Positions 23,191 to 64,000 of a stretch of DNA of 64,000 nucleotides are shown here, piece by piece. Numbering within the stretch: the first letter of the stretch is position 1; each line of letters begins with the position of its first letter. The position numbers were made by a program, and so were the translations under genes. The notes beneath the pieces were generated by a model that saw nothing but the letters and a program-made list of their open reading frames with translations, did no database searches and was not told the origin of the DNA. Source of the stretch: Syntrophales bacterium (GTDB lineage Bacteria; Desulfobacterota; Syntrophia; Syntrophales; UBA2210); contig CAXXKT010000001.1 in the NCBI GenBank assembly GCA_963662405.2, positions 96,001 to 160,000 of the forward strand, written 5' to 3'.

Positions 23191-23267
<77 letters not shown>

Positions 23268-23281
23268 TTAAAATTAAGGGG

Positions 23282-24376
23282 TTAGCTACCATTGCTAGCC
23301 TCTTTTTTTATGGTGAAATCGTGGACTGTGCCCGAAACTGTGCCCGTTTGGGTTTCCAGATAGGCCGCTTGCCTTTGTGAAGCCACAATCAAATCATCTT
23401 CGCTTACAATGTTATACCGTTCAAATATCGTTCGTGTCTTGTGCCCTGATATCATCATTGCCACCCGCTCCGGGATACCAGCCCGTACCATGTTTCTTAT
23501 GGCCGTGCGTCTGAAATCGTGAAACAATCTTGTTCCGATTTTTGCATCCTTGCAAGCGCTCTTCCAGGCCTTTCTTATATCGGTTATCTTTCCGCTCTTG
23601 TCACGGTTGGGGAAAACATAGGGCAAGATTGCTTCGCTCTTCTTCCTGTCTTCCTGTAGTTGCTTGAAAATCTCTTTCAATTCCGCGTCAAGATAGAAAA
23701 TCCGCGATTCATCGTTTTTCGTTTCCCCGGCATTCAGTCTTACAATCCCACCGTTCAAATCGACACGATCCCAAGTGAGACTGAAAATCTCTTCTTTTCT
23801 CCATCCTGATTTATAGGCGAACGTGACAAGTCCCTTTAGATATTCCGGCAATTGATCTTTCAAAGCCAGAAAGTCCCCGTGCTCAAAAAACCCTTGCCGC
23901 ACGTTGTTTTCTTTCAGCATAGGGATATATGGGACCCGGTCAACCTTGGGAGGGGTTTGCTTTGCCCCCAAGTTTAGCATACGTTTTAACGCTTTTAGTT
24001 CGTTGTTAATCGTTGCATTAGCCGCTTTATCTGCAAGGCGCTCTTCAATATATGCTTTGATCCTGGGTGTGGTTATCTGAGTAATCCGGACTCCTTCAAA
24101 GTGCTTCTTCAGGTGTTCAATGCTTATCTCTGCGCGCACAATAGACTTTCTATTGTTAATGCGATAATCGGTAAGCATTTCCTCTGCCAGCTCATCAAAT
24201 CGCACCTTGTCAAAGTACACCCCCGGAAGCTTCCCCTCTGAGATTTCACCTTCACGCTTTCTCAATAGCCTTTTCGCGTCCGCTTCTTTGTTGCTCCGGG
24301 TAGATTCACGGTAAGGCTTTCCGTTTCGATAGTACTTAATCCAGTAAACGTTTCCCCGTGTGTAAATCATTCCCAT
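23282..24376 (-). CDS. Phage-type tyrosine integrase
   Basis: N-terminal arm-binding 'YWIKYYRNGK', 'SGWRKEE', 'TKN', 'HDFRRT', 'SGHKT...FERY'. Confidence 0.95.
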   Translation of the reverse strand: MGMIYTRGNVYWIKYYRNGKPYRESTRSNKEADAKRLLRKREGEISEGKLPGVYFDKVRFDELAEEMLTDYRINNRKSIVRAEISIEHLKKHFEGVRITQITTPRIKAYIEERLADKAANATINNELKALKRMLNLGAKQTPPKVDRVPYIPMLKENNVRQGFFEHGDFLALKDQLPEYLKGLVTFAYKSGWRKEEIFSLTWDRVDLNGGIVRLNAGETKNDESRIFYLDAELKEIFKQLQEDRKKSEAILPYVFPNRDKSGKITDIRKAWKSACKDAKIGTRLFHDFRRTAIRNMVRAGIPERVAMMISGHKTRTIFERYNIVSEDDLIVASQRQAAYLETQTGTVSGTVHDFTIKKEASNGS

Positions 24377-26263: not shown

Positions 26264-27451
26264 ATGCCAAAGCAAGCTAATCAACTTCACAATCAAAACG
26301 AAGAGAAAGAAAAACGGGCGGCAGAGTTAGTCCTTGCCAACCAAGAGCTTGCCCATCAAAATAAATTGAAAGAAAAACGGGCAGCAGAGTTAGTCCTTGC
26401 CAATAAAGAGCTTGCCCATCAAAACGAAGAGAAAGAAAAACGAGCGGCAGAGTTAGTCCTTGCCAACGAAGAACTTTTCTACCAAAACGAAGAGAAAGAA
26501 AAACGGGCGGCAGAGTTAGTCCTTGCCAATAAAGCGCTTGCCCATCAAAACGAAGAGAAAGAAAAACGGGCGGCAGAGTTAGTCCTTGCCAACCAAGAGC
26601 TTGCCCATCAAAATAAATTGAAAGAAAAACGGGCAGCAGAGTTAGTCCTTGCCAATAAAGAGCTTGCCCATCAAAACGAAGAGAAAGAAAAACGAGCGGC
26701 AGAGTTAGTCCTTGCCAACGAAGAACTTTTCTACCAAAACGAAGAGAAAGAAAAACGGGCGGCAGAGTTAGTCCTTGCCAACCAAGAGCTTGCCCATCAA
26801 AATAAATTGAAAGAAAAACGGGCAATCGAACTCTCCAGCCTTTTGGGTGAATTAAAACACGCCAACGCACAACTGTTTGCGGCTTATGAATCCACCATTG
26901 AAGGCTGGTCACATGCGCTGGATTTGCGCGACAAAGAAACCGAAGGTCACACCCAACGCGTGACTGAAATGACATTGAAACTTGCACGCGTGGCGGGAGT
27001 TACCGAAGAAGAGTTGGTACACGTGCGGCGCGGAGCGCTTTTGCATGACATCGGCAAGATGGGAGTACCTGACCACATTCTTCTTAAGCCAGACAAACTG
27101 ACAGATGAAGAATGGGTTGTCATGCGTAAGCATCCCACTTTTGCCTATGAACTACTTTTGCCAATCGCTTATTTACGTAATGCGCTTGATATTCCTTATT
27201 GTCATCACGAAAAATGGGACGGGAGCGGTTATCCACGCAGGTTGAAAGGCGAGCAAATTCCATTTTCGGCGCGTCTCTTTGCGATAATAGATGTGTGGGA
27301 CGCTCTCCGCTCTTATCGTCCGTATCGACAAAGGTGGACAAAGGAGAAAGTAATTGAACATATCAAATCGCTTTCTGGAACGCACTTTGAGCCGAAGGTA
27401 GTGGAATTGTTTTTGAATATGGTGAATGAAGATGAAAAAAACACGGGCTAA
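26264..27451 (+). CDS. HD-GYP phosphodiesterase with N-terminal 21-aa coiled-coil repeats (gene cassette)
   Basis: 'ETEGHTQRV', 'LLHDIGKMG', 'HHEKWDGSGYP', 'DVWDAL...RPY'. Confidence 0.92.
   Translation: MPKQANQLHNQNEEKEKRAAELVLANQELAHQNKLKEKRAAELVLANKELAHQNEEKEKRAAELVLANEELFYQNEEKEKRAAELVLANKALAHQNEEKEKRAAELVLANQELAHQNKLKEKRAAELVLANKELAHQNEEKEKRAAELVLANEELFYQNEEKEKRAAELVLANQELAHQNKLKEKRAIELSSLLGELKHANAQLFAAYESTIEGWSHALDLRDKETEGHTQRVTEMTLKLARVAGVTEEELVHVRRGALLHDIGKMGVPDHILLKPDKLTDEEWVVMRKHPTFAYELLLPIAYLRNALDIPYCHHEKWDGSGYPRRLKGEQIPFSARLFAIIDVWDALRSYRPYRQRWTKEKVIEHIKSLSGTHFEPKVVELFLNMVNEDEKNTG
26297..26826 (+). repeat. 63-bp coding tandem repeat, 8 full units plus a partial
   Basis: NEEKEKRAAELVLAN(Q/K/E)EL(AH/FY)Q repeated, near-identical DNA. 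Confidence 0.95.
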
Positions 27452-27502
27452 CAAACGGATGGAGCCGACTCCTTACAGTCGCGGCTTATCCACTCGTTAC
27501 CA
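27446..27502 (+). other. attC site of HD-GYP cassette
   Basis: GGCTAAC...GGATGGAGCCG-ACT..AGT-CGCGGCTTATCC...GTTACCA hairpin; GGCTAAC is the exact complement of GTTAGCC at 26191 upstream of the gene. Confidence 0.8.
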
Positions 27503-31772: not shown

Positions 31773-32517
31773 TCTGTGGTCTCCCTTTCGCTAATATTAT
31801 TTATGTGAATCATTCTTGCGACTCTTTTAATTAATGACTTTGAGCACATAACCACCTTTGGCATCATAAAGCCGTTTCTGTATAATTTCTTTTGAGGGGG
31901 TATTGGCGCCGTCAAGAAAGCTTTTCTCTTTTTTCTTGACTTAGGGGCGACAGGAGATTTACATTAGGATCACAACTTGACGATATAAATCTATCGTCGC
32001 CCCGCCTGATGGTTTCTCTGCCAGGAGAGACCGTCGGGCTTTTTTTTACCCTCATTGTTGCCTTATCTTATTACAAATTCATAAATACTGAGAAGCAGTA
32101 ATTTAGGCTAAAAACTCAAACTGGGCTAATAAGCTAATATAACTATAGATATTTTTTTAATTTGTTGATAATCTTCCAAAGAATTCAGGGGAGTTCAAAG
32201 AAGAGAATCTCCCCCGGTTTATTGCTGTTTCCGATAATATTATATATATCAAGCACGTGGAGTCTATCCCCCATAATAAGTATTCTTGCATGTCTCCGCC
32301 CCCTTCGCGTCCCTGTAGGTAGGTGGGGGAAGACCGGGCAGGGTCCCCGGTTTTTCGGTAGCGAACCTATCCCCCTAAATTGTGCCTTTTCCTGTGCCCG
32401 TGAGGTCAAATTTTGCTGAATTTTACCGCATATTCCCCAACGTGAACAACAAAATAAACACCTAATCTTTCAAATAGTTGCCTTTTCCCTTGCGTTTTCC
32501 AACTTTCTTTTTTCGAA

Positions 32518-32563: not shown

Positions 32564-32737
32564 AAAAGTTATAAGGGGTTATAGCTGTCCTATAACCCCT
32601 TATAACAACCATCTTTCATTTTACCCCACACCCTACCCCACACGGGAAGATGAATTTGGTCCTTTTCAGGCAATATGGGCGAAATATTTGTTGGGGTGGA
32701 TGTTGATATATACTTGAAGGAATATCGTTGTTTCTTC

Positions 32738-34175
32738 CTCCTACCATGAATTTATATAGAGTGGTGTATAATCGATTAGTCGATGTTCATGGGAAGGCGG
32801 GAGGACTCAGTGCTTCCTGGGCGTTAGAGCCCTCATTTCAGTATGTCCCAAGCCTCTGTGAACCATAATAGGTTGGTTGGATCATTGAATCCTTGTCACG
32901 CTGGAGGATTGGTCTGGAGGCTATGGTTCCTGCTTTTCCTTTCATTCGTTAGGAGGTGAAGCGATGTCAGGATTAACGGACAGCTTTAATGATTTTGTTG
33001 GAATAGATGTTTCCAAAGATAAATTCGACGCCTGCGGAATCACAAGAGATGCAGCACAGCTCTTCCAGTTTTCCGCGAGCATGGATCGTAAGGGCTTCGA
33101 TAAGTTGAGGGAACATCTTGCTTCTGTTTCCATTTCGTCCGTTTTAATCGGGATGGAATCAACAGCATCTTATCATATCAATCTTTTCTCGTACTTGATT
33201 TCAGAGGGTTACCGAGTGATCATCATTAATCCTCTGCTGATTTCCAATTACGTGAAGATGCAGCTCCGGAAAACCAAGACAGATAAGAAGGATGCCGCTG
33301 TTATTGCCATGTTTCTTCTTGCACACAGAAATACCCTGAGCCAACGATCATATTCTCCTTTGATTTCCGAGCTTCGGGATCTTTCACGTCAGCGGGAGAA
33401 TCTGGTTGATGAGATGACCGCTCTGAAGATCAACATCAAACGGCTCCTGAATATCACTTTTCCGGAATTGGAGCATATGACGTTGGTCTTTACGAAGTCT
33501 ATGCTGAAGCTTCTCCAGCAATACCCATCTGCTGTTGCTCTGAGAAGTGCGGATCCTATTCAATTGTCCCAGACGCTCATTGCAGATTCCTATGGGCACA
33601 AAAGAGAAGCATTTACCGCGGAGTTAATGAAGGCAGCTAGAGCGTCGGTCGGTACCCACAGTGCTGCGAAGGAAGTCATTCTTAAACAACAGGTGACCTT
33701 GCTCCTTCACTTTGAAGAGGACCTGCAAGAGATAACCGGCATATTAATTGAGATGAGCCGAAATCTGATGGAAGAAGACATAAACATTCTGACTTCCATA
33801 AAGGGCATTGGTAACAAAACTGCTGTTAATTTTCTCATTGAGATGGGGGGCGACATCAATCAGTATGATGATTCCGGGAAGATCATTGCCATGGCGGGCT
33901 TAGATCCGGCTGTTTACCAGTCAGGCAAACATGAAGGTAAAGGCAAGATCACGAAACGAGGGAACCGCCATTTACGGAGAGTCATCTGGATGATGGCAAC
34001 CAGGGTGATCAACTATAGCGATGTTTTCAAGACTTACTACCTCAAACGTAGAAAGGAGGGATTGCCGTATAAGATGGCAGTATTGGCCACCGCTCACAAA
34101 TTGATCCGTGTCATCTATGCCATGCTGACGCAACGGACAACTTTCTGCCCACAGATAAATTCATGATAGTTGACT
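32738..34175 (+). mobile_element. IS110-family element (copy A)
   Basis: CT core at 32738-39 and 34174-75; sub-terminal IR CATGAATTTAT (32745) / ATAAATTCATG (34155); ~220-bp left non-coding end. Confidence 0.85.
32964..34166 (+). CDS. IS110-family DEDD recombinase/transposase
   Basis: 'VGIDVSK', 'MESTASY', 'KTDKKDA', 'SIKGIG', 'AGLDP..YQSG', 'KRGNRHLR'. Confidence 0.95.
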   Translation: MSGLTDSFNDFVGIDVSKDKFDACGITRDAAQLFQFSASMDRKGFDKLREHLASVSISSVLIGMESTASYHINLFSYLISEGYRVIIINPLLISNYVKMQLRKTKTDKKDAAVIAMFLLAHRNTLSQRSYSPLISELRDLSRQRENLVDEMTALKINIKRLLNITFPELEHMTLVFTKSMLKLLQQYPSAVALRSADPIQLSQTLIADSYGHKREAFTAELMKAARASVGTHSAAKEVILKQQVTLLLHFEEDLQEITGILIEMSRNLMEEDINILTSIKGIGNKTAVNFLIEMGGDINQYDDSGKIIAMAGLDPAVYQSGKHEGKGKITKRGNRHLRRVIWMMATRVINYSDVFKTYYLKRRKEGLPYKMAVLATAHKLIRVIYAMLTQRTTFCPQINS

Positions 34176-34227
34176 GAAAGAGATGGGATCAAGAGTGAAG
34201 AAAAAGTGGAGGATTTCTTTCCGTATT

Positions 34228-34283
34228 CATTAACACAGAGTTCACCGGGGCGCTTACGCATCCGGTGAAACAACTTGTTCAGC
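34228..34283 (-). other. attC site ending array-1 cassette
   Basis: Minus strand GCTGAAC...GTTTCACCGG-ATGCGTAAGCGC-CCCGGTGAAC...GTTAATG; R'' nearly complementary to GTTCGGC at cassette start (35245-35251). Confidence 0.75.
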
Positions 34284-35248: not shown

Positions 35249-35281
35249 AACAATGTTTATATGGATCCTGATAAAAACCTA
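35249..35281 (-). other. attI-like site, copy 1
   Basis: Minus strand TAGGTTTTTATCAGGATCCATATAAACATTGTT directly abutting cassette start; 32/33 identical to 62267-62299. Confidence 0.65.
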
Positions 35282-35383
35282 TTTTCCTTCCTGCTATACG
35301 TACCAAAGTGGTGATTGCAACTGAGGTAATTTAGGTTCATCATCTGTCTGTATTTCTTATTGATTCAGGATAAGGAGGCAGAG

Positions 35384-36532
35384 ATGACCATGAAAGACGA
35401 TACTACACGGAAGGCAGCAATGTCTTCTGCAGTTACAGAACATCCCACCGCAACGACATCCTGGCATTACCAGACTCGTTTCCGTTTTTCATTACATCGT
35501 GATGGAAGTGTTGAGACACTCGCTACGATTTTGCAGCATCTTTCCCACATGGATCTTCCGGGCACGGATCATGTTGCGGCCTATCTGCGTTACCTGACCT
35601 ATCGTAACCGGCGCCCCCGGACGTTGACAAGTCGTTTTGGTTCCATAGTTTTGTTCCTCGCCATGGTGCGTGACAGCGGGAAGACACGTATTGAAGACGT
35701 TACCAGGAGAGATATTGAGTGCTTTATCGAGCACGAGCAGGACAGGGGCAATAAGATTACGACGATACGGACAAAGCTCGTCAATGTGCAAGCCTTTCTG
35801 CGCTATCTCGTGGAGGAGGAGATTGTTTCCCCGGATGTGTTTGGCAGGAGGATACGGTTGCAGCTGCCGGAGCGGCTGCCGAGGGCTATGGATCCTGACG
35901 ATCTACAGAAGCTGTTATCCGTGATTGACGATACCCGGGACCGAGCCATGATCATGGTACTGTTGAGGACGGGGATGCGCATCGGCGAGTTGCTCAATAC
36001 GAAGGTATCAGATGTCCACATCGGGGAACGGAGGATAGAGATTTACGAAGGCGAGAAGAACCGCCTGGGGCGCGTGGTGTATCTCAGTGACGATGCGATC
36101 CGTGCGCTCCGGAGGTGGTTGCAGGAGAGGAATCCCTGGGAGGCGTACCTTTTTTCCACTCATAGAAGCATATACCAGATGTCGTACAGCACCGCCCGTC
36201 TGATCTTCCATCGATATCTTGAGAAGGCGGGGTTACGTGACCGGGGCTATACGCTCCATACGCTTCGGCACACCTTTGCAACGGAGTTTCTCAACGCTGG
36301 CATGCGCCTGGAGTGTCTCCAGGTGCTGCTGGGTCACCGGAGTATCGAGGAGACCAGGCGCTATGCCAGGCTTACCGACAAGACCCGCGAGGAAGAGTAC
36401 TTTCGGGCCATGGCCCGGATAGAAGGGAGGGATAGTGATGGACATAACCAATGTCATCGTGAACTGGCGGCGGTTTCTGAAACGGAGAAACTGTTCGCCC
36501 AATACCGTGAAGAACTATCTGAATCTCATTAA
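35384..36532 (+). CDS. XerC/D-like tyrosine recombinase 1 (not IntI)
   Basis: SAM-like N domain; RTGMR, K, HTLRH, LGH, Y intact; no IntI-specific insertion. Confidence 0.92.
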   Translation: MTMKDDTTRKAAMSSAVTEHPTATTSWHYQTRFRFSLHRDGSVETLATILQHLSHMDLPGTDHVAAYLRYLTYRNRRPRTLTSRFGSIVLFLAMVRDSGKTRIEDVTRRDIECFIEHEQDRGNKITTIRTKLVNVQAFLRYLVEEEIVSPDVFGRRIRLQLPERLPRAMDPDDLQKLLSVIDDTRDRAMIMVLLRTGMRIGELLNTKVSDVHIGERRIEIYEGEKNRLGRVVYLSDDAIRALRRWLQERNPWEAYLFSTHRSIYQMSYSTARLIFHRYLEKAGLRDRGYTLHTLRHTFATEFLNAGMRLECLQVLLGHRSIEETRRYARLTDKTREEEYFRAMARIEGRDSDGHNQCHRELAAVSETEKLFAQYREELSESH

Positions 36533-37331
36533 ACACTTTGTTGTCTGGGCGGACGTGCCCGTTGAGGAGGTGACGCATGCAACGGTATCGCGCTACATAG
36601 AGTATCTGATGCAGAAGCGGCTATCGCCCAAGACCGTCAACTGTCATCTGAACGGTATTCGTCAGTTCTATCACTATCTGCGGGAAGAGGAAGGGATCGG
36701 TATTGTCAATCCCATCAGGAACAAACATACACAGAAGATGCCCCGACCCCTTCCCCGGCATTTACGAGACGAGCAGGTGGATCGTTTCTTTAACGTTGTG
36801 AATGGACACCGTGACCGTGCCATGTTCATGCTCATGCTCCGTTGCGGTCTCAGGGTGGAAGAGGTTGCCACCCTTGCCATCGGTGCCATAGACATCAAAC
36901 GCAGGGCTATCTTGATTGAGGACGGCAAGGGTGCAAAGGACCGGGTCGTGTATATGAGTAATGATGTGATTCAGTCACTGGCAGCCTATCTGAGAGTACG
37001 GCCGGCATCCCGGGCACGGAAGATCTTTCTGGCAGAGAAAGAGCCGTGCAGGGGCCAGCCCATCTCCATCCGCGGCATTCAACGGCGCATGGAACACTAT
37101 GCCCGCAAAGCGCGGATCAAAATGTCCTGTCATCATCTCCGGCATACGATGGCTACGCAGATGCTCAATGCCGATGCTGATCTGTGTACGATTCAGGATC
37201 TTCTCGGCCACAGCAATATAAAAACCACCCAGAGGTATTGCCGTGTATCGAACATGAAGGTTCAGAGAGATTACTTCAATGCCATGGAGGTCATTATGCA
37301 CCGAAGGGCCTGCAACCCACATAACACTTGA
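36435..37331 (+). CDS. XerC/D-like tyrosine recombinase 2 (not IntI)
   Basis: RCGLR, GKGAKDR, HHLRH, LGH, TTQRY; overlaps recombinase 1 by ~98 bp. Confidence 0.92.
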   Translation: MMDITNVIVNWRRFLKRRNCSPNTVKNYLNLIKHFVVWADVPVEEVTHATVSRYIEYLMQKRLSPKTVNCHLNGIRQFYHYLREEEGIGIVNPIRNKHTQKMPRPLPRHLRDEQVDRFFNVVNGHRDRAMFMLMLRCGLRVEEVATLAIGAIDIKRRAILIEDGKGAKDRVVYMSNDVIQSLAAYLRVRPASRARKIFLAEKEPCRGQPISIRGIQRRMEHYARKARIKMSCHHLRHTMATQMLNADADLCTIQDLLGHSNIKTTQRYCRVSNMKVQRDYFNAMEVIMHRRACNPHNT

Positions 37332-37509
37332 CGGAACAGAGAATATGTGAAATGGTAAACAACAACTAACCGCATAGAATCAATAGGTAAATCAGACTAT
37401 AGTACGTATAGCTTCCTGTAGTTGAGAAAAACAAGGGTGAAGAAGAAGTAGAATATTTCTTCCTGCAATCATTAGGAAAATAGTCGCTGTTGTCACTATT
37501 TTTCAAGAC

Positions 37510-40500
37510 TTATACGGCGTTATTTTTGGACTTCAAGATAATAGTGTCTGTATAAGCTTTTTGAAAAAGGTCGCTTTCTGCCGTACCGCTTGTCAATCCC
37601 GATGCAAGATGATTGAAAATTCTTTTTTTAGACTCAATCTCATATTCAGCGATCATTTCTGCTAATAACGATTTCGATCTGTTTTCTATATCTCTGTCCA
37701 TATCAATCCCATAGGCAAATTCCACGACGTCTTTATATATACTCCAAGCTTGTGCCCAGTATTTTATATCTTCGTGGTCACGTCTTATTCTCTTTAAAAG
37801 TTCAAGAGATATAGACAGAAATGATCTCGCTAAGAAGTTAAGCTTGTCCCTTTCTGCTTTTTGAACGAACTGTATTTTTTTGAACCAAACATACCAAATA
37901 GCTGTAATTATATTTTGTTCAACTAATATGCCATCCTCTTTACTGATCATGTATGATAAAAATTGTCCAATCTCGGTCAATGCGTTTTTGTAATCCCCTT
38001 TAAACCACCAAATAGCATTTATGAATGAATTGAAGGCTTGGTGATTATTTAATATCTCCAAATAATTCTCTATGCTTCCCCCCGCCTCTGAAAGATCATC
38101 TTCGAGAACAATCAATATATCCTTATAGTTTATCGGCATTCCAACCACATTAAATGCGCATAGCTGGGCGAATTTCTCTGCGGCTTCTTTTTGAGTTATT
38201 ACCTTCTTTTCTTTTAATATCGTTATTATATCGATTGTAGATATAGTATCTTCATAATGATTCTTACCACAAACATAGAGCCTTGATATTGCATCATCTG
38301 TATAAAATATGGGTTTTAATGAGTCATAAACAGACTTTATTTTATCTAATTCACTGAAAATATTATTTTCATCTATTATATCTTTACTTGAAGGTTGTTG
38401 AATCTGTTCAACATATCTTGATAATAATTCAACTATATCTTTAGCTTTGGTTGCATAGGGGATAAAAACAAATTGTTGAGCCAACATCTGTAAGTTAGCG
38501 ATTGAGTCTTTTGCGATTGCAATTTTAGGAAATATATCAAAAATGTATTCTAATAATGCTAAGTCGAATAAAATCAACAAAGCCACATCATCAATAAGAG
38601 GCATTCGCCCTCTAAGGTTCTCTATTCTTCTTGGCACATAGGGCCCGGGGCTAATAGTCAGCTGATATTGCAGATCATCCTTTCCGGTTATCTTGGACAA
38701 CTCCCACAGGTGAATAAAGTTCGAAACGTTCAATAAAAAATGATGCCTGATTAAATAAGGAACAGGAAGCGTGCCGCTGCTTAAAAGATTTTCATTCCGC
38801 TGGTACCATTCCCTTTTTTCTTTTGTGAATCCTGTTATAGTTTCTAGTTGAGATAATAGATCTTCGTGCGATTTTTCTTTTACATGGAATGATCTTAAAA
38901 CTTTTGACTCTGGAAATCTCTCTGTATATTTCTTAAGCCGTTTTTGAAACTCTTGAACGTTCTCATCTTGAACCGTTTTTTCAGGATCAAGTGTTGCCAC
39001 AAAGAAATTTAACAAATAAAGTCCTTCTTCAGCTTCATCATTTTGGTCACACAATTGGCCATATTTTAAACATATATCAATCAACCTCTCACTCTTTGGA
39101 TTGATATACATTTCAATGTTAAACAACATCCTCAAAAAATGTACCTTCTGCTTTTGATAAGTTGCTTTCTCAAGAAGTCGGGTGACCAAGGTTTTGGCTT
39201 TTTCGATCAGACCACATCTTGCTGATATATTTATATAGATTTCAAGTGCAAACGGGTCATGTTTTTCTCCTTGTGAGATTTCTTCTAAAAGTGTTAATGA
39301 TTTTCCTGTTTCTCCAATTCCATCTAGTGCTAAAGCCTCAAATGCTTTAAACTGAGAGTTGGTTGAAAATCTGATTTGTGCCTTGCGGGATGTTGCTAAA
39401 ACGCCATGCCAGTCTTGGACTGTTACTTTAGCCTGACAAAGAATAGTGTATTCGCTGTCTAGTAAATCCCTCTCCGAAATGATATCAATCGAAATTTCAA
39501 TAATTTTTTGTGCTGCGGCGTTTTCATATGGGTTAAGGTTATTAAAAAGTTGAGCTAATAATTGATTGTGTTTGTGACCTTCTTTGTAAACATCATATAG
39601 TTTTTCAATTGCCTCAGGCTTTTTTAACGCTTCCTGATTTGCGTGCAAAATAAAATCATATACTGCGATCAATGACCTTGAATTAGGGACCGTTTGTAGT
39701 GCCTCAAGAAACTTGTCTCTTTCAGTATACTTCATGAGATCATTAGCGCATTCAGCTGCAATTGCGATAACGGTGTCATAGTTAGCGGGTTTTTCTTTGA
39801 TTAGATCGTCAAGTATTTCAATAGCTAATTTGACCACTTCCGCTTTATCGTTTTTCCAATAAGTTAAAATGATTTTATTGGCTTTATTGTTTAGTGTATT
39901 TGGTAGCTTACATAATTGCCGCTCTGCAATGGTTCGATCACTTGTATGCATTGCAACTTGAAACAAACTTTCCTGTACAATTTGAATGGATGGTCTGATG
40001 TCTGCCAATTTAACGAGGTGTTTTTTAACGATTTCTGGCTCATTAAAATACATGCCTAAAATAGAGAATATATCGATCATCGATTGAACGTCAGGGGGGT
40101 ACCCTAATTTATCAGCTAAATTCATCGCAGATATTAACTCTATCCATGCGTTCTTTAATATTTCCGGATTCATGTCAGGAGTGCCTGCGAAAGATATCGC
40201 TTTGTCATCAGGAGTTTTTCTGAATCCAAGATTGAAGTATGATCTGGCTTTTAATGATCTTAAACTTAGTTCTTGTCTATCAGTTAAATCTTGTTCTGAG
40301 AATGCTTTGTTGACTTGGTTTATACAGTCATTGTATGAGCCTGAAAGCAAATGTATAAGCGCTTTAAGGACGAAAATGTCTTGTTCGTCCTGGTTTTCTA
40401 AAATTTTAAAGGCTTCTTCATATCTTTCGTTTAAAGCCAGCAATTTTGACTTCAGCCGAAGGTAATCAAGATCATTCTTTTTTTCTATCTCTGATAAAAT

Positions 40501-41478
40501 GCCATCAATTGTTTTGTCGTCTTTCCTTTCATCCGGAATTCTCGATTCTAAATAGGCGAGATGATATTTTTGAAACTCCTTAGAAGTTAGATGGGCTTGC
40601 TTGTGTAAGTTGAGTGCTTCTTCACGTTTCCCAACAAGACTTGCCAAGTAGGCTCTTTGGTAATAGTATTCAGATTGTTCATGCTGACTTGCTTCTTCTA
40701 ATTGATCTGCTAATTTATCAAGCCTGTCTTGAGCTAGTATTGCGTTATTTAAAGATAGAATCTCGGAGACTTTTTTTAATTCATACGCAAAACTACCTTC
40801 TGGCGCATCTAACCAAGGTGTCTCAGTTTTGTTAAGGATTGTATCGAGAGCTACTTTATTGGTCCCAAAAATGCTTCCAATCTGATTAATCTTATTTATA
40901 GGATCAGAATATTTTTTCTCTACTATATCGTATATTCCTTCCAGAACCCTCTTTTTTTCTAAACGGTTGTTTAAGTATGGCAAAACGTTTAGACTTGAGT
41001 TTAAGACATTTTCGACAGGAATGTGAAATGTGTGTGTATCCTCGCCTAAATGATCGAGAGTTGGCTTTCCTGCTCGAAGCTGGTCAATTTTTTCATCCAT
41101 CCACAAATAGTAAGCTGTACACTTCCTAGGTTCTTCATCTTGGGTAAGATCCGCAAACACCAACATAACTGGGTTTTCGATTCTTATATAATAATTTAAA
41201 TTTCGAATGTCTAAAGGTTGAGAGAAATGTTTACCATCAGCACTGAGCCATTTATTTCTGCCATCCTTTATCTGTGCTGAACCCTTTATTTGAGCATTAA
41301 ACACGTTCTTATAATGCCCTTGTTCAACGATTTGCACTTGCATGTCTAAACCAGCATCAGCATCACCATCAGTCTGAGTTGGTCTCCATGACTTGGGATG
41401 ACAGCTGTTAAACGTCATAACTGCAAAATGCCCTATTTCTTGTGAAACAGATTCTTTTGGTAACTTAGTCTCTTTCAT
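37510..41478 (-). CDS. Large DUF4365-like nuclease + TPR-like + PIN-like protein (putative defence)
   Basis: 'DAGLDMQVQI...FNAQIKG' REase-type N-terminus; helical repeats; 'LIDDVALL...IFYTDD' PIN-like C-terminus; AT-rich. Confidence 0.7.
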   Translation of the reverse strand: MKETKLPKESVSQEIGHFAVMTFNSCHPKSWRPTQTDGDADAGLDMQVQIVEQGHYKNVFNAQIKGSAQIKDGRNKWLSADGKHFSQPLDIRNLNYYIRIENPVMLVFADLTQDEEPRKCTAYYLWMDEKIDQLRAGKPTLDHLGEDTHTFHIPVENVLNSSLNVLPYLNNRLEKKRVLEGIYDIVEKKYSDPINKINQIGSIFGTNKVALDTILNKTETPWLDAPEGSFAYELKKVSEILSLNNAILAQDRLDKLADQLEEASQHEQSEYYYQRAYLASLVGKREEALNLHKQAHLTSKEFQKYHLAYLESRIPDERKDDKTIDGILSEIEKKNDLDYLRLKSKLLALNERYEEAFKILENQDEQDIFVLKALIHLLSGSYNDCINQVNKAFSEQDLTDRQELSLRSLKARSYFNLGFRKTPDDKAISFAGTPDMNPEILKNAWIELISAMNLADKLGYPPDVQSMIDIFSILGMYFNEPEIVKKHLVKLADIRPSIQIVQESLFQVAMHTSDRTIAERQLCKLPNTLNNKANKIILTYWKNDKAEVVKLAIEILDDLIKEKPANYDTVIAIAAECANDLMKYTERDKFLEALQTVPNSRSLIAVYDFILHANQEALKKPEAIEKLYDVYKEGHKHNQLLAQLFNNLNPYENAAAQKIIEISIDIISERDLLDSEYTILCQAKVTVQDWHGVLATSRKAQIRFSTNSQFKAFEALALDGIGETGKSLTLLEEISQGEKHDPFALEIYINISARCGLIEKAKTLVTRLLEKATYQKQKVHFLRMLFNIEMYINPKSERLIDICLKYGQLCDQNDEAEEGLYLLNFFVATLDPEKTVQDENVQEFQKRLKKYTERFPESKVLRSFHVKEKSHEDLLSQLETITGFTKEKREWYQRNENLLSSGTLPVPYLIRHHFLLNVSNFIHLWELSKITGKDDLQYQLTISPGPYVPRRIENLRGRMPLIDDVALLILFDLALLEYIFDIFPKIAIAKDSIANLQMLAQQFVFIPYATKAKDIVELLSRYVEQIQQPSSKDIIDENNIFSELDKIKSVYDSLKPIFYTDDAISRLYVCGKNHYEDTISTIDIITILKEKKVITQKEAAEKFAQLCAFNVVGMPINYKDILIVLEDDLSEAGGSIENYLEILNNHQAFNSFINAIWWFKGDYKNALTEIGQFLSYMISKEDGILVEQNIITAIWYVWFKKIQFVQKAERDKLNFLARSFLSISLELLKRIRRDHEDIKYWAQAWSIYKDVVEFAYGIDMDRDIENRSKSLLAEMIAEYEIESKKRIFNHLASGLTSGTAESDLFQKAYTDTIILKSKNNAV

Positions 41479-42954: not shown

Positions 42955-43296
42955 TGGGGTCAACCCTAGACTATTTACTAAGAAAGGATCTGATTCTCTT
43001 TAGGATAATGGCGACAGCGACTATTTTTAGCCAATACCGTGACTTGTTTTAAATAAGAATTATTCCCCCCGGAATGTAAGAAACAATACATCTAAAAAAT
43101 ATTATGTCAAGGAGTTTCAAGGATATTGTATATTTCAATCCGTAACAAACACTACTCACGCTCTACAAACAACCAAACAGCATTTCACATTTTGCGGCCA
43201 AGCTCTCATTGACATACGAGTCCATTTTACCTATATCGTTTCCATGAAAAGCAAGTTCTTATCAATCAATAAATAATACATAAGGATGGGAGTGGC

Positions 43297-59280: not shown

Positions 59281-59304
59281 GCGCCCTCTTTCCATTTGAA
59301 AAGG

Positions 59305-59337
59305 AAAGGACCCGTACTTTGTACGGGTCCTTTTTTA
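59305..59337 (+). terminator. Rho-independent terminator of fdh2 operon
   Basis: AAAGGACCCGTAC-ttt-GTACGGGTCCTTTTTT. Confidence 0.88.
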
Positions 59338-59350
59338 TTGTTCATCCGGC

Positions 59351-59444
59351 TAATGAGTACGAATGAAGGCTGTCTTTGTTTGCTTCCTGTAGTCGATAAA
59401 AACCAGAGTGAAGAAATAGTAGTGGTTTCTTTCAGTACTCATTA
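59351..59444. repeat. Uninterrupted copy of the ~95-bp repeat unit (10-bp terminal IR TAATGAGTAC/GTACTCATTA)
   Basis: Homologous to reconstructed units 32698-32739+34176-34232 and 35251-35292+37418-37474. Confidence 0.75.
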
Positions 59445-59501
59445 CGGACTGCTGTGGGGCGCGCGGTCGTTTTGCGCGCCCCTACCAGCAGATAGTTAGC
59501 A
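59439..59501 (-). other. attC site (HNH cassette)
   Basis: Minus strand TGCTAAC...TGCTGGTAGGGGCGCGC-aaaacgacc-GCGCGCCCCACAGCA...G|TAATGA; R'' complements GTTAGCA at this cassette's start. Confidence 0.8.
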
Positions 59502-59508
59502 TAGCTTT

Positions 59509-60243
59509 TTATGTTTTCGCCATCGCTTTTGAAAGATTACCTGATTTTTTCCACCCATAAAAAGTTTTTTCAAAAAATTCTTTAGACGCTGTATTTTCAA
59601 TCAGGACAGGTAATATACCATTATAATTTAGGAAAAGCTTTTCATTGTATGGTAGCTGTCCAGTATGGTTTGAAATAAAAAACACCCATGTTAAACCCGC
59701 CAACACAAACATATAACATCGATGTCCATCAAATCTTGTTTCTTTAGCGAGCATCATCATTTTGCTGGTAAAATCGAAATAGGACGGGGTAAAGATTATG
59801 AGGCATCCATAGTCATAAGATGCACCTGGATTACCCTCGTATAACATAGAACGTAATTTTTCTTCATGAGGTCCTAAGCTAACGTTTGTAAATTGATGAA
59901 GATTTGATGCTCCTGCTCGCCATATAAGCGAAAGCTGAAATAGTTTAAACTTTGTATAATCAATATTTTTTATTATGATAAAATCACTCATTTTCTCCAT
60001 ACTTAGCTTATTACCACTAAAAAACACTTGAGCAGCATATGTTTCCCATTTATTCAGTCTGTCTTCGCATTCTCGGCAAAGCATCTTTTCCCTAAAGCCC
60101 TTTTGCCATTTTCTTACTTTTGGTGCACCTTCTATTTGAACGAATTGATGCTTTTCCTTGGCATAAAGAGCTTTGAAAAGAAATTCTGGGACTATATGCG
60201 AATTACATAGTTCTTTTTCTTTAAGGCACAATCTACATTTCAT
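59509..60243 (-). CDS. HNH endonuclease-like protein (cassette gene)
   Basis: 'CRLC...NSHIVP...MLCRECEDRLNKWE'. Confidence 0.7.
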   Translation of the reverse strand: MKCRLCLKEKELCNSHIVPEFLFKALYAKEKHQFVQIEGAPKVRKWQKGFREKMLCRECEDRLNKWETYAAQVFFSGNKLSMEKMSDFIIIKNIDYTKFKLFQLSLIWRAGASNLHQFTNVSLGPHEEKLRSMLYEGNPGASYDYGCLIIFTPSYFDFTSKMMMLAKETRFDGHRCYMFVLAGLTWVFFISNHTGQLPYNEKLFLNYNGILPVLIENTASKEFFEKTFYGWKKSGNLSKAMAKT

Positions 60244-60253
60244 AGTGAATTGA

Positions 60254-60315
60254 TGCTAACGGGCTGCTCAGGGGCGCGCGGCTTTTGCGCGTTTACTGCA
60301 GCAGCAATGTTATAG
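60254..60315 (-). other. attC site (lipoprotein cassette)
   Basis: Minus strand CTATAAC...GCTGCTGCAG..CGCGC-aaaagcc-GCGCG..CTGAGCAGC..GTTAGCA. Confidence 0.85.
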
Positions 60316-60333
60316 CAACGTCTTATGATTCAA

Positions 60334-60936
60334 TTATAGAGGGTCTTCATTAGATAAACGTATTTCAAAAGTGTTACCTAAATACATAATATTTAGACAG
60401 TTTCCATGGCCTAAAAATACTCTTTCCATACCTTCTTTAGCTGGTTGAAGTCGGTATTCGACCTGAGTAACCTTTGCTGCAACCGCAATTTTAACACCGA
60501 AAAATGTATCTGGATCGTTTTTTATTGCTTTGATAATTGAATAAACCTTTTGCTTGGGGCAAAGAAGTTCCAGCTTAAGCTCTGGCGAATGCCTTGAGGC
60601 CCTTATCAATAGCTGGTAGTTGATATCATCACATGTAGCCACATTCTCCAAGGTTCCGATAAACAGAATGGGTTTGCCAATTAACCATACTGCCTCTAAA
60701 TCAATCGAGTAGAGACATCGGGAATGCTTTTTAATAATGGATTCTCTCCAGCTAGTATCAGCTCCCGAATCCCTAGCAAAAGCTTGGACTGCCAAGCGTA
60801 GGGCCTCTTCTTGAGCTTTTTCTTTAGCGCCAGAATCTGCGATATCTTTCTGACGATCTGAGCATGATAGCATACACAAGCTAAGAATGGCCGCAGTTAC
60901 AATAATGAGCCTCTTAAATCGATGTATATGTGTCAT
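60334..60936 (-). CDS. Putative lipoprotein (cassette gene); true start at 60936
   Basis: Lipobox-like 'LCMLSC'; the longer ORF-track start lies inside the upstream attC. Confidence 0.7.
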   Translation of the reverse strand: MTHIHRFKRLIIVTAAILSLCMLSCSDRQKDIADSGAKEKAQEEALRLAVQAFARDSGADTSWRESIIKKHSRCLYSIDLEAVWLIGKPILFIGTLENVATCDDINYQLLIRASRHSPELKLELLCPKQKVYSIIKAIKNDPDTFFGVKIAVAAKVTQVEYRLQPAKEGMERVFLGHGNCLNIMYLGNTFEIRLSNEDPL

Positions 60937-60950
60937 GGGTTTTCCTACCT

Positions 60951-61024
60951 CTATAACGTTGTCTTCACCGGTGGCGACGAAGTGAAGTGGAATTGTCCCA
61001 TCCGAGTGCAAGGCATGGTTGGCA
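60951..61024 (-). other. attC site (DAC-domain cassette)
   Basis: Minus strand TGCCAAC...TGCCTTGCACTCGGATGG...CCACCGGTGAAGACA..GTTATAG; GTTATAG complements CTATAAC of next cassette. Confidence 0.8.
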
Positions 61025-61027
61025 TTT

Positions 61028-62248
61028 TCATCCAAATGAAAAAGACGTATTCTTGCTAAATACTTTTATCTCACCATCGGCGGAGATTTTCACAGAAAGC
61101 CCATAATCTTTCAGTGTGTTCGCTGCTGCAAGTCGCGCACCTCCGTCTGACCCTGCTTCCAGCTTAAGTATCGCTCCTGCAGAAATAAACTTTCCTGTAG
61201 CATCAAGAACCACCGCACCGTCAATACCGAGAATTTCTTGCCTCAATCTTCTATCTGTATTTTGAAAGGTAGCATTATTTATAGCCGCTAATAATACCTT
61301 GGTTTTGATAGATCGATTATTTTCGAAATGATCTGATTCATTAACCCTTTGATCATCATGAAATTTTTTAGATTTCGCCTTTTGAAGTATCCCGATGCAA
61401 GCACCAGTACGTGCAAATGAAACGTCAATGATTGACTCATAAAGGCTTTCCCTCAGATTTCTATCAAGTTTCCTGCTTTTAAACGCTAATTGTCTTAATA
61501 CTGAATTGTAAGCGAATAGCCTCCATTCCCCTCTTCTTTTAGCAAATATGAGGGTCCCAGAGTTGAAAACTAATATTTCGCCATTTCTATTTAATATAAG
61601 GGCGATCTTGTTGTTTCCCTCAGTATATTTTGCAAAGGTGGTGTAGCGGAAAGGTGAGTTGTGAGTTTCTGGTGCGAGGTTAAGTGTTTGGTATCCAATA
61701 AGATTATTTCCGATGGAAAATTCCACCAATGTATCGTACCCATTTGTCAATACCTTCGAAAAATCATTCTTTGTATATTCTTCAAAAGTTGTACCATTTG
61801 ACGAAATAACATTCATATCAATGCCAATAGATACAGCTATCCTATTACCTTCATATGTCTCTCCTGACCAACGTTCCAATTTTTCAATAAATCTGGCTAT
61901 CTCCAGAATTTTATTAGAATCGTCATCCTCAACCAAAGATTTTGCTATAACCCTACTAACAGTGTTCGATATCAGATACTTTTGAATTTGTTCATCAAGT
62001 GTTGCATAATCATTAGCTATATTAAATACATCTCTGATAATTTTTGTTTCATTAGATTCAAAAGGTTGGGCTCTATAAACAATATACCGTCCTCCTTCTT
62101 CACAAAGAATCCCAATTTTAGAGCCTCCGCTTAGGTGTGATACATCTTTCTTCTGATTTCCTGAATCTTGTTCAAAAGATATATCAATACCAGAGAAAAA
62201 TTTAACAATTTGGTTAGAGAGTATAAAGTCAACTAAATCTTTTTTCAC
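61028..62248 (-). CDS. Protein with C-terminal DisA_N/DAC (diadenylate-cyclase-like) domain (cassette gene)
   Basis: 'GACIGI', 'ILGIDGAVVLD..G....AGAIL', 'GGARLAAA', 'VKISADGEI'; GTG start with AAGGAG RBS. Confidence 0.75.
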   Translation of the reverse strand: MKKDLVDFILSNQIVKFFSGIDISFEQDSGNQKKDVSHLSGGSKIGILCEEGGRYIVYRAQPFESNETKIIRDVFNIANDYATLDEQIQKYLISNTVSRVIAKSLVEDDDSNKILEIARFIEKLERWSGETYEGNRIAVSIGIDMNVISSNGTTFEEYTKNDFSKVLTNGYDTLVEFSIGNNLIGYQTLNLAPETHNSPFRYTTFAKYTEGNNKIALILNRNGEILVFNSGTLIFAKRRGEWRLFAYNSVLRQLAFKSRKLDRNLRESLYESIIDVSFARTGACIGILQKAKSKKFHDDQRVNESDHFENNRSIKTKVLLAAINNATFQNTDRRLRQEILGIDGAVVLDATGKFISAGAILKLEAGSDGGARLAAANTLKDYGLSVKISADGEIKVFSKNTSFSFG

Positions 62249-62266
62249 ATCTGCTCCTTATATACC

Positions 62267-62299
62267 AACAATGTTTATCTGGATCCTGATAAAAACCTA
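62267..62299 (-). other. attI-like site, copy 2
   Basis: 32/33 identical to 35249-35281; abuts GTTGGTA start of first cassette. Confidence 0.65.
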
Positions 62300-62547
62300 A
62301 ACACGGCAGTTTTGCTGTATGAAGCCTCTCACGAAAAACAAAAAGCCCCACCTCTCTTTGATGAGAAACAGGGCTTTGATAATCAGACCATAATCCACTC
62401 CTTGGTTACAGCCAGTCACAAGCAGAAAAAATCAAGATCAAGATTTCATCTAGCTAACTCTATGATGATGTATTGTCAAGAGATTTTACCATGAGACCTT
62501 CAATCAGTATTCATCGATTTTCTTCTGGAATTATTTTGAGCAGTAGT

Positions 62548-63784
62548 AGATACCGTTCTTGTCAAGCGAAAGCTGGTTTATAATTTGGGTCATACTTTTT
62601 GCCGGATTTCAGGATTCCAAAGATAATGTGCACCAGCTTCCTCATTATCGCACAGACAATCACTTTCCCGTTTTTTCCTTTCTCTTTAAGGCGATTATAA
62701 AAAGCAATCATAACGGGATTACATTGGATCGATACCAGTGCCGGCATATACAGAGCTTTTCTGAGCCGCGCATGTCCGATTTTGCATAACCTGGGTTTGC
62801 CTTTAATAGATGATCCTGAAAGTGTTTCCCGTGGCGCAAGCCCGATGAACGCCACCAGTTCCCGCACATGACTGAATTTGTCCAGATCATCCAATTCTGC
62901 CAGGATGTGAGGAATGGTTGCCGTGCCGATACCTGGAATGGAAGCCAAGAGCCCTTTCTTGTTTTTCAGGTTCGGATCCCGATCAATTAGATCAGCAATC
63001 TGTTCCCTGATTTTCTCTATTTCCTTATCAAGATAGTTAATGTGTTCTCTGATCAATGGAATAACTGATTCATGAGCTGCACTTATTCGATTCTTCTCCT
63101 GACTTCGCATGTTGATCAGACTGTCAACTCGCCTGACCAACGCCCTCAGGGCTCTGATCTCCGGTGAGGGTGGACTCCAGGGATCTGGTCTCATAGCCAG
63201 ACAGAATCTGGCAATCAAGGCTGCATCAACCTTATCCGTCTTGGTGCGAATCAACTCGCTCTGGCCAAACCCTTTGATGCGAGCGGGATTGACAACACTG
63301 ACCACATGGCCGGTTTCATGGAGATAGATCGCCAATTCCTCTCCATAGTTGCCGGTCGCCTCAAGGCAGGCATGTACCTTATGAACTCCCTGTCTCTCCA
63401 GCCAGATCGTCAGTGTCTCAAAACCTTCCACCGTATTTTTGCAGGTTTTGTGTTTTGTCTTCCCCTCTACAAGAAGTGCAACGTCGAATTTCTGTTTTGC
63501 GATATCTATCCCAAGAACCGATACTGACATACTACAATACTCCCTCGTACATTAATCTAATCTCCAGTAAAATAGCTTCGTTCGAATCAACCTTGTAAGT
63601 GCAAACTCATTCCCATCTGAGAAGGTTTATGATACCGTACGAGTTATTGAACAAAGCTGTGGGAAGAGGATCTACTCTACAAATCATGCTCTCTGGCATC
63701 AGGTGAAACACAGATTCACTCTCCCCATTTTACCCCAGTGTCTCAAGATCTCTTATATCTCCTAATCCCCTTCTAGAACACAAG
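62548..63784 (-). mobile_element. IS110-family (IS621/IS1663-like) element (copy B)
   Basis: CT cores (AG on +) at 62548-49 and 63783-84; ends join to donor ACGGTATCTTGTG; ~250-bp upstream non-coding end. Confidence 0.85.
62562..63530 (-). CDS. IS110-family DEDD recombinase/transposase
   Basis: 'LGIDIAK', 'LEATGNY', 'KTDKVDA', 'SIPGIG', 'GLAP...SGSS', 'RKALYMPA'. Confidence 0.95.
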   Translation of the reverse strand: MSVSVLGIDIAKQKFDVALLVEGKTKHKTCKNTVEGFETLTIWLERQGVHKVHACLEATGNYGEELAIYLHETGHVVSVVNPARIKGFGQSELIRTKTDKVDAALIARFCLAMRPDPWSPPSPEIRALRALVRRVDSLINMRSQEKNRISAAHESVIPLIREHINYLDKEIEKIREQIADLIDRDPNLKNKKGLLASIPGIGTATIPHILAELDDLDKFSHVRELVAFIGLAPRETLSGSSIKGKPRLCKIGHARLRKALYMPALVSIQCNPVMIAFYNRLKEKGKNGKVIVCAIMRKLVHIIFGILKSGKKYDPNYKPAFA

Positions 63785-63878
63785 GTGCTATACGTAACAA
63801 AATGGTGGTTGCAACTGAGCCATCATAGGTTCATCATCTATCTGTATTTCCTGTTGATTTGGTGGGAAGGAGAGAGTG

Positions 63879-64000
63879 ATGAGCCAAAAAGCCACAGAAA
63901 CGTATTCTGTCTTATCTCCGTCATCCCTGACTGGTTTGAGAAACACCGATCATGGTGAGGGGATACAGCACACCGTTGTTTTCAAACCGGGCATTCCTGA
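63879..64000 (+). CDS. 5' end of an ORF running off the window, positionally equivalent to recombinase 1
   Basis: Preceded by a ~90-bp leader (63786-63878) homologous to 35292-35383; AAGGAG RBS; open to window end. Confidence 0.5.
   Translation, partial: MSQKATETYSVLSPSSLTGLRNTDHGEGIQHTVVFKPGIP

Follow-up and report, generated by a model that had tools for sequence, protein, structure and literature searches.

A CALIN-like integron cassette array that retains a putative attI, beside a probably separate two-recombinase mobile element, in a Syntrophales genome

Clusters of attC sites lacking an integron integrase (CALINs) are known from the IntegronFinder literature. An array of this kind, followed by the start of an element with two tandem tyrosine recombinase genes, occupies positions 59351 to 64000 of the 64,000-nucleotide (nt) stretch analyzed here (the window, C1:96001-160000), which comes from the three-contig, 3.8-Mb genome of a Syntrophales bacterium. 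Very probably, the two are separate: an ordinary attI-bearing array without an intI of its own, and a mobile recombinase-pair element of ~2.1 kb that came to lie beside attI through shared targets. Prokaryotic tyrosine recombinase transposons fall into five recognized groups (ICE/IMEs, SEs, GInts, RITs, and Tn554) according to PMC10214605.

The array resembles CALINs and sedentary chromosomal integrons in that several attC sites of the same orientation accompany promoterless, mostly unannotated genes. As in CALINs, no intI is nearby, implying reliance on an IntI encoded elsewhere, and the R boxes are hybrid, as a G|TT crossover predicts. Unlike CALINs, it retains a recognizable attI, its host genome contains at least nine such attI-type sites, and the canonical integrons of that host are "inverted," their attI following the 3' end of intI. 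We class the array with known systems, as a CALIN-like array that bears an attI.

The element resembles recombinase-in-trio (RIT) elements, as described in PMC3414803 and PMC10214605, in consisting solely of tandem Xer-like recombinase genes between inverted repeats, with no cargo, and in having a patchy, multicopy distribution. It differs from that description in carrying two genes rather than three in all 20 copies examined, there being no room for a third recombinase gene because the element spans only ~2.1 to 2.5 kb. Its inverted repeats are 11 to 12 bp, much shorter than the 34 bp given for those of RITs, and its 7-bp direct repeats are clear and lineage specific, the comparison being one of description. 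Tn554-related elements and SEs, as portrayed in PMC10214605, share with it two tyrosine recombinases, short and imperfectly inverted terminal repeats, a 6- to 7-bp spacer or footprint between the joined ends, and target-specific insertion, and copies of the pair with unequal flanks match the SE rule that places the carried footprint at attR. Unlike the members of that group, the pair (387 and 298 amino acids [aa]) lacks a large recombinase of ~600 aa, a TnpC/Srap or Tfp partner, and cargo, and its two flanks are usually identical; here too, the distinction is one of description. The element resembles both groups and has the defining gene content of neither.

XerC/XerD-dif and archaeal XerA provide the closest structures by sequence (PDB 4a8e and 5hxy [XerA] and 1a0p [XerD]), and the likely core of the element, with short inverted arms around a center of 6 to 8 bp, has the layout of dif and lox. 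In contrast to XerC, XerD, and XerA, the pair scores below all three family cutoffs and is multicopy, patchy, and self-bounded, as expected of a mobile rather than a housekeeping system. BIM elements were considered as a comparator and rejected, since their description gives one recombinase and an unrelated protein instead of a recombinase pair.

The features of the array are as follows, with attC scores from R1, a covariance model described below, and genes from the list of open reading frames (ORFs).

62267-62330, minus strand: putative attI (33-bp site plus small hairpin), from alignment A3; crossover G|TT between 62269 and 62268
61028..62248, minus strand: cassette 1 gene, 406 aa
60951-61027, minus strand: attC of cassette 1, R'' TGCCAAC ... 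R' GTTATAG; R1 15.7 bits, E 0.041, over 60951-61024
60334..60936, minus strand: cassette 2 gene, 200 aa from ATG at 60936 or 233 aa from TTG at 61035
60254-60315, minus strand: attC of cassette 2, R'' CTATAAC ... R' GTTAGCA; R1 28.6 bits, E 4.5e-6
59509..60243, minus strand: cassette 3 gene, 244 aa
59439-59502, minus strand: attC of cassette 3, R'' TGCTAAC ... R' GTAATGA; R1 24.1 bits, E 1.1e-4, over 59439-59501

An initial annotation, made from the sequence alone, had recognized three minus-strand genes, each followed by an attC, and a reading of the ORFs and hairpins agrees with it. As read on the plus strand, the hairpins are CTATAAC...GTTGGCA (attC1), TGCTAAC...GTTATAG (attC2), and TCATTAC...GTTAGCA (attC3, folding at -18.7 kcal/mol), and all three are imperfect and have the order R''(..AAC)-L''...L'-R'(GTT..) of integron attCs. 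Two hairpin-based attC finders were either too strict or too noisy, and model R1 was used in their place. R1 was built from six attCs, solely those of two intI-adjacent arrays in the same genome; a first alignment of nine was misaligned at the 3' ends, and dropping c, f, and h left the six that align end to end. In a scan of the window with filters off (41 kb covered), R1 scores all three attCs on the minus strand, and attC2, which reaches 8.7 bits on the plus strand against 28.6 on the minus strand, is also recovered in a search of the whole genome. The model additionally recovers the attC of the first array in the window (34228-34283, minus strand) and confirms attCs beside some other attI copies (L040 and L045). 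Because a model derived from intI-linked attCs scores all three, the attCs of the array appear to be of the canonical type.

For the three cassettes in turn, the two 7-mers that flank the gene are reverse complementary at 6 of 7, 7 of 7, and 7 of 7 positions, placing the cassette boundaries at G|TT such that each cassette start complements its own R'', as had been claimed; together with the attC model, this complementarity upholds the view that the cassettes are truly integrated. Within any one hairpin, by comparison, the two 7-mers share no more than 0 to 2 of the 4 positions that vary, and the inner stems are paired; hybrid 7-mers with intact stems are what an R-box crossover at G|TT leaves. 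The pattern is unlike the outcome of exchange midway in a double-stranded site. The orientation of the attCs is consistent with the strand of the genes and with an attI at the right-hand end, and we regard 59351-62330, as judged from its sequence, as a genuine integron cassette array.

The array begins, as originally proposed, at a 33-bp site (62267-62299) that is identical at 32 of 33 positions to 35249-35281. In alignment A3, this site, six other copies, and the attI regions of one intact and one broken intI form a single family, whose likeness extends ~30 bp beyond the 33-bp site, through the small hairpin. At the array end where a complete integron has its integrase-proximal attI, positions 62267-62330 match both intI-linked attI regions. 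The sequence 3' of the intact intI ends in ...ATAAACATTG|TT and that 3' of the broken intI in ...ATAAACACCG|TT, and cassettes come next in each case. By eye, attI copy s7 is nearly identical in A3 to the attI of the intact intI across ~31 bp, and the cassette-side flank diverges from AAC onward in 7 of 7 attI copies compared. Because it is homologous to attI sites beside two canonical intI genes, the 33-bp site appears to be a true attI, of a type on which canonical IntI acts.

Searched in full with TIGR02249 (cutoff, 265 bits), the genome gave two matches above the cutoff: an intact intI at C1:2211906-2212934 (471 bits at C1:2211990-2212934) and an intI broken by a stop or frameshift (C1:30608-31553, with the match above the cutoff at C1:30608-31120). 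Nothing above the cutoff lies near the array, where there are only weak matches to the recombinase pair, and an intI within a few kb, as a complete integron would have, is absent. At least nine attI-type sites (seven found by BLAST and two beside intI genes) are present in the genome, only two of which adjoin a recombinase pair. The array has no intI, while its attI and attCs match the intI-linked types, and it most likely depends on a distant IntI acting in trans. In both canonical integrons (C1:2211906-2214395, equivalent to L038:906-3395, and C1:30425-31553, in L039), attI lies past the 3' end of intI; where intI is intact, the two are separated by what was judged by eye to be an IS3-like insertion of ~1.1 kb.

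The recombinases of the pair, here RecA and RecB, are encoded in an element that crosses the right-hand end of the window.

63785..63798, plus strand: GTG remnant of the left direct repeat and left inverted repeat CTATACGTAAC
63799..64000, plus strand: element-internal leader and start of recA2 (63876/63879)
63876/63879 to 65039, plus strand: recA2, 387 aa, running beyond the window
64963-65859, plus strand: recB2, 298 aa, beyond the window and overlapping recA2
65929-65946 (window-equivalent): right inverted repeat GTTACGTATAG and direct repeat GTAGGTG

Much of what the initial annotation expected here is borne out: an ORF starting at 63876/63879 leaves the window, a leader then put at ~90 bp (63786-63882, 97 bp) is 80% identical to 35292-35387, and past position 64000 lies a tandem pair, RecA2 and RecB2, with DNA 68% identical to the pair at 35360-37331. 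The pair was to be followed by a GTACGTATAGC-like word, which is present as GTTACGTATAG and starts 69 bp beyond the RecB2 stop, and by a ...CATTA end, which is absent, the sequence there reading GTAGGTGCAAGATG... instead. That the leader is part of an integron platform, as the initial annotation implies, is not supported: it lies within an element bounded by 11-bp inverted and 7-bp direct repeats of its own, just inside the left end. No further coding-strand ORF of at least 80 aa is listed between the repeats.

All pair proteins contain the catalytic domain PF00589 (E values from 2.6e-34 to 1.2e-37), with the catalytic R, H-x-x-R, H/W, and Y columns invariant in alignment A4, and belong to the tyrosine recombinase superfamily. 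The downstream ORF is neither unrelated to the first pair nor a canonical IntI: with TIGR02249, the four pair proteins score 77.8, 102.2, 72.8, and 120.1 bits, all under the cutoff of 265, and all four lack ~40 catalytic-domain residues that the IntI of this genome has in A4. The IntI-specific insertion is essential to integron function according to Smyshlyaev et al. 2021 (PMC8138268). By sequence, the pair is Xer-like and not an IntI. In PLSDB, the best relatives of RecB2 are at most 33% identical, the level of XerD, and plasmid carriage was not shown there.

The same element recurs in other genomes. Twenty copies were examined, comprising those of this genome and 18 from 16 loci of genomes of the same order; in every one, RecA is preceded by a CTATACGTAAC-like sequence, and the inverse of that sequence is found ~70 bp past RecB (200 bp past it in a single locus). 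Directly outside the inverted repeats are 7-bp direct repeats, perfect in 15 of the 18 copies from other genomes. In a public survey of 80 loci from species-representative genomes, 51 had both ends on the contig, and in 45 of these 51, the direct repeats had no more than one mismatch; element size was ~2.06 to 2.48 kb in 50 of 51, with one outlier of 1.4 kb. The counts from the 16 and the 80 loci are not independent, because five loci are common to both. Eighteen different 7-mers occur, each typical of a lineage, with GTAGGTG the commonest and CTTCCTG the type of the first copy in the window.

The pair is present in 17 of 201 sampled genomes of the order, at up to six copies per genome, and many copies stand alone on contigs of 2 to 3 kb, which is typical of repeated elements. 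By record titles, public copies come from Syntrophales, Desulfobacterales, Thermodesulfovibrionales, Nitrospiraceae, Bacteroidales, Gemmatimonadota, Gammaproteobacteria, and one Bathyarchaeota bin. Matches to attC at E < 1 occur near the pair in 4 of 80 public loci (528 kb scanned), and two marginal attC matches (L028 and L031) occur among the 16 loci of other genomes. No canonical IntI is present in those 16 loci, and no attI-like word was found at the pair loci of other genomes. A full-text literature search, whose coverage mostly excluded subscription journals, yielded no account of an element with two recombinases in this arrangement. As a variant of tyrosine recombinase mobile DNA, the element is well supported, and it has probably not been described before.

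Some copies have unequal 7-bp flanks (L061, L062, L069, L076, L083, L084, and L115, and also L028), in which the RecB-distal side has the usual lineage 7-mer and the RecA side has the odd one. This arrangement holds in eight of nine cases, the ninth having no known lineage 7-mer, and recalls the footprint rule of SEs and Tn554.

Repeats and an insertion sequence around the array and the element bear on how the two came together.

59351..59445, no strand assigned: E65 repeat at the far array end, with terminal inverted repeats TAATGAGTAC/GTACTCATTA and ends that pair in the fold
62300..62549, no strand assigned: conserved module of ~250 bp, ending ...GAGCAGTAGTAG; 79% identical over 215 to 293 bp to copies beside attI s3 and s7
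62342..62377, minus strand: terminator-like hairpin from a terminator scan (15-pair stem and T run), inside the module and upstream of attI
62550-63784, minus strand: IS110-B, with a 322-aa transposase at 62562..63530, inserted at GTAG|GTG

Beyond attI, the ~250 bp and the IS110-B copy named in the initial annotation correspond to the module and the insertion sequence listed here. IS110-B belongs to the IS110 family, with a DEDD transposase (NF033542, 242 bits with a cutoff of 140; PF01548, 2.2e-28; PF02371, 1.2e-24). Together with GTAGGTG, the final ~60 bp of the module make up a target unit that is present about 12 times in the genome, in three cases at ~265 bp from an attI. Empty target sites in s3 and s7 read ...GAGCAGTAGTAGGTG..., and an empty GTAGGTG also occurs in locus L033. 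In the window, the arrangement is ...GAGCAGTA GTAG[IS110-B]GTG [element] GTAGGTG..., and GTAG|GTG surrounds the insertion point in all five IS110-B copies, four of which share a conserved left flank. Because IS110-B splits the left GTAGGTG repeat, the pair integrated first and IS110-B later. The first element copy, 35294-37411, lies at CTTCCTG in an E65 repeat. The distance from pair to attI is 12 bp at that locus; at the other, it was ~265 bp before IS110-B and is now 1.5 kb.

These data suggest a course of events. A distant IntI acting in trans would have inserted the cassettes, and could still exchange them, through single-strand crossover at G|TT in folded attCs. Excision of the element would join its ends in a circle whose core site, consisting of arm, 7-bp spacer, and arm, has the layout of lox, FRT, and dif, and the circle would then integrate at chromosomal sites that share its 7-mer. 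The window copy would have integrated at the GTAGGTG that closes the target unit, where the later hit by IS110-B would have left GTAG|GTG, and the first copy at the CTTCCTG of an E65 repeat situated 5 bp from another attI. Landing beside an attI is unremarkable if so, because the target repeats of both copies flank attI sites; the co-location would reflect targets that happen to flank integron platforms, and not a common recombination function.

Several observations weigh against this reading. Both pair copies lie less than 300 bp (before IS110-B) from an attI, on its noncassette side, and point away from the array. The noncassette side of attI is the place of a classical intI. Why the E65 repeat and the GTAGGTG unit flank attI sites is not explained by shared targets. 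In 2 of the 80 public loci (L057 and L094), an attC lies within ~60 to 150 bp of the element end, so there is some recurrent link between the pair and integrons, which is accounted for only indirectly; in addition, R1 was trained on this genome, and attCs of other genomes may escape it. attC1 is the weakest of the three attCs. That an IntI acts on the array we infer, and contig-level data, which are uninformative on this point, showed no circles of cassettes or of the element. The contigs of four sequencing runs break at attC2 and attI, where they branch into other copies, and none of them joins the sequences on the two sides of a cassette, of IS110-B, or of the pair; on excision, such contigs are uninformative.

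A functional tie between the mobile pair and integrons, in which the platforms serve as safe havens or attI-array modules are rearranged or dispersed via the flanking repeat units, is unlikely, and it retains its small share of probability because attCs lie close to element ends in L057 and L094, where they abut the target unit. Such a tie would suit a genome with at least nine attI-type sites and two intI genes in which the GTAGGTG unit adjoins three attI sites; moreover, ~165 bp between two GTAGGTG-like sites in s7 and L022 are missing at the window locus, which fits a deletion between such sites. Most of the ~12 genomic copies of the left part of the unit, however, are away from attI, the CTTCCTG-type elements of other genomes have unrelated flanks, no extra solo inverted repeats bracket the arrays, and rearrangement was not directly observed. 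In a specific form that we find decidedly doubtful, the pair would act on the 7-bp sites flanking attI and move, delete, or seed whole attI-plus-cassette modules, a second layer of recombination that, if real, would account for there being at least nine attI-type sites and two intI genes.

Very unlikely indeed is the reading implied by the initial annotation, that the tandem pair is the recombinase of a noncanonical integron and uses the 33-bp site and the attCs in place of IntI: two diverged pair copies do each lie beside an array with an attI and point away from it, no intI is within reach of either array, and in two public loci an attC is no more than ~150 bp from the element end, but canonical intI genes whose attI sites are homologous occur in the same genome, the attCs of the array fit R1, the pair lacks the IntI insertion described as essential in PMC8138268, it has unrelated sites of its own (the 11-bp inverted and 7-bp direct repeats), five of the seven attI copies found by BLAST have no pair, most copies in other genomes have no nearby attC, and attI and pair are here parted by an insertion sequence and 250 bp. 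What stands of the initial interpretation is the integrated cassettes, the attI, and a pair that is not IntI; what falls is the assignment of the pair to the array. Its argument that a repeat of the pair beside attI is not due to chance also holds, the adjacency being seen twice.

Read as an attI-bearing array beside a separate mobile element, the locus represents ordinary integron biology in an uncultured-type Syntrophales anaerobe and does not indicate a new kind of integron. With many attI-bearing arrays and a single intact, inverted intI, the genome is a useful case for how arrays disperse. Minimal mobile elements of the kind defined by the pair form a widespread family; each combines two Xer-like recombinases with arms of 11 bp and a 7-bp spacer that is specific to the lineage and was seen in at least 18 variants. 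If mobile in the way suggested, the element would be among the simplest prokaryotic tyrosine recombinase transposable units and a natural example of target choice governed largely by a short spacer.

The proteins of cassettes 1, 2, and 3 have no match in Pfam, NCBIfam, or PADLOC. In an Atlas language-model feature search with the 406-aa cassette 1 protein, DAC or DACN domains occur in 9 of the 10 top-ranked family-bearing clusters (highest score, 0.96), and the protein is possibly a divergent diadenylate cyclase (DAC) domain protein, which we offer as a lead only. By eye, the N terminus of the cassette 2 protein resembles a signal peptide or lipoprotein signal, and the cassette 3 protein has two CxxC pairs close to its N terminus.

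The G+C content of 59351-64000 is 38 to 46%, compared with ~55 to 58% in the flanking formate dehydrogenase genes. The terminator of the formate dehydrogenase operon is at 59302-59336, and position 59351 begins 15 bp beyond it. In the closest relative that has the orthologous operon (85% identity), the homologue of window-equivalent 75282 onward starts no more than ~100 bp past the terminator; therefore, ~16 kb, including the array and the pair, are absent from this relative. Part of these ~16 kb is core-like DNA.

The ...CATTA end of the E65 repeat abuts the R' box of the last attC. By BLAST, the repeat is 78% identical over 64 bp to 37411-37474 and 85% identical over 41 bp to 34192-34232. 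Viewed as a repeat of ~65 to 95 bp ending in ...CATTA, it has copies at 59351-59445, 37411-37475, and 34184-34232; two of the three adjoin the R' box of a last attC, and the third is 5 bp from an attI and hosts the first recombinase-pair element. IS110-A (32734-34183) is inserted within one E65 copy. Possibly, E65 is what originally lay beyond attI; alternatively, it may be a small mobile repeat.

The terminator-like hairpin of the ~250-bp module is kept in the module copies at attI s3 and s7, and by eye a mini-ORF of only two codons, which has a Shine-Dalgarno-like sequence, precedes it; L022 also has a copy of the module. The module could encode a small RNA or a leader. An Rfam scan of the window at gathering thresholds returned only a tRNA (23191-23264) and int-alpA (32311-32377), and Rfam scans by E value gave nothing credible in locus L001 or around seven public copies of the pair; because these scans gave no credible match, the module and the target unit are left unnamed. 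A promoter-like TTGACA-17-TAGCTA directed toward attI, seen by eye in the module, went unreported by the scan and is not claimed. Bridge RNAs of the IS110 group are encoded at the transposase-upstream end. In a second IS110-B copy (window-equivalent 69183-69353, L001:10183-10353), the last 87 bp of that end are tandemly duplicated.

A palindromic repeat of ~109 nt (CCTGAAC ATGCGGCGG ... CCGCCGCAT GTTCAGG) occurs in the canonical array at C1:2214432-2214533, 2222093-2222201, 2225110-2225218, and other positions, as well as at C1:20646-20754 and C1:881634, often immediately after an attC. The best-scoring attC of the window (27446-27502, plus strand; R1 34.5 bits) directly follows a plus-strand gene (26264..27451) whose product is a coiled-repeat protein with, by eye, an apparent HD-GYP-type C terminus. 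It belongs to a cassette of opposite orientation in an island at 23 to 44 kb that starts at the tRNA at 23191-23264, next to an integrase gene at 23282..24376. Inverted repeats of ~18 bp (AAAATAGTCGCTGT..) at 37476-37500 and 43000-43020 bracket a gene for a 1,322-aa protein with a DUF4365 domain (37510..41478) and a 311-aa gene, and may be the ends of another inserted unit.

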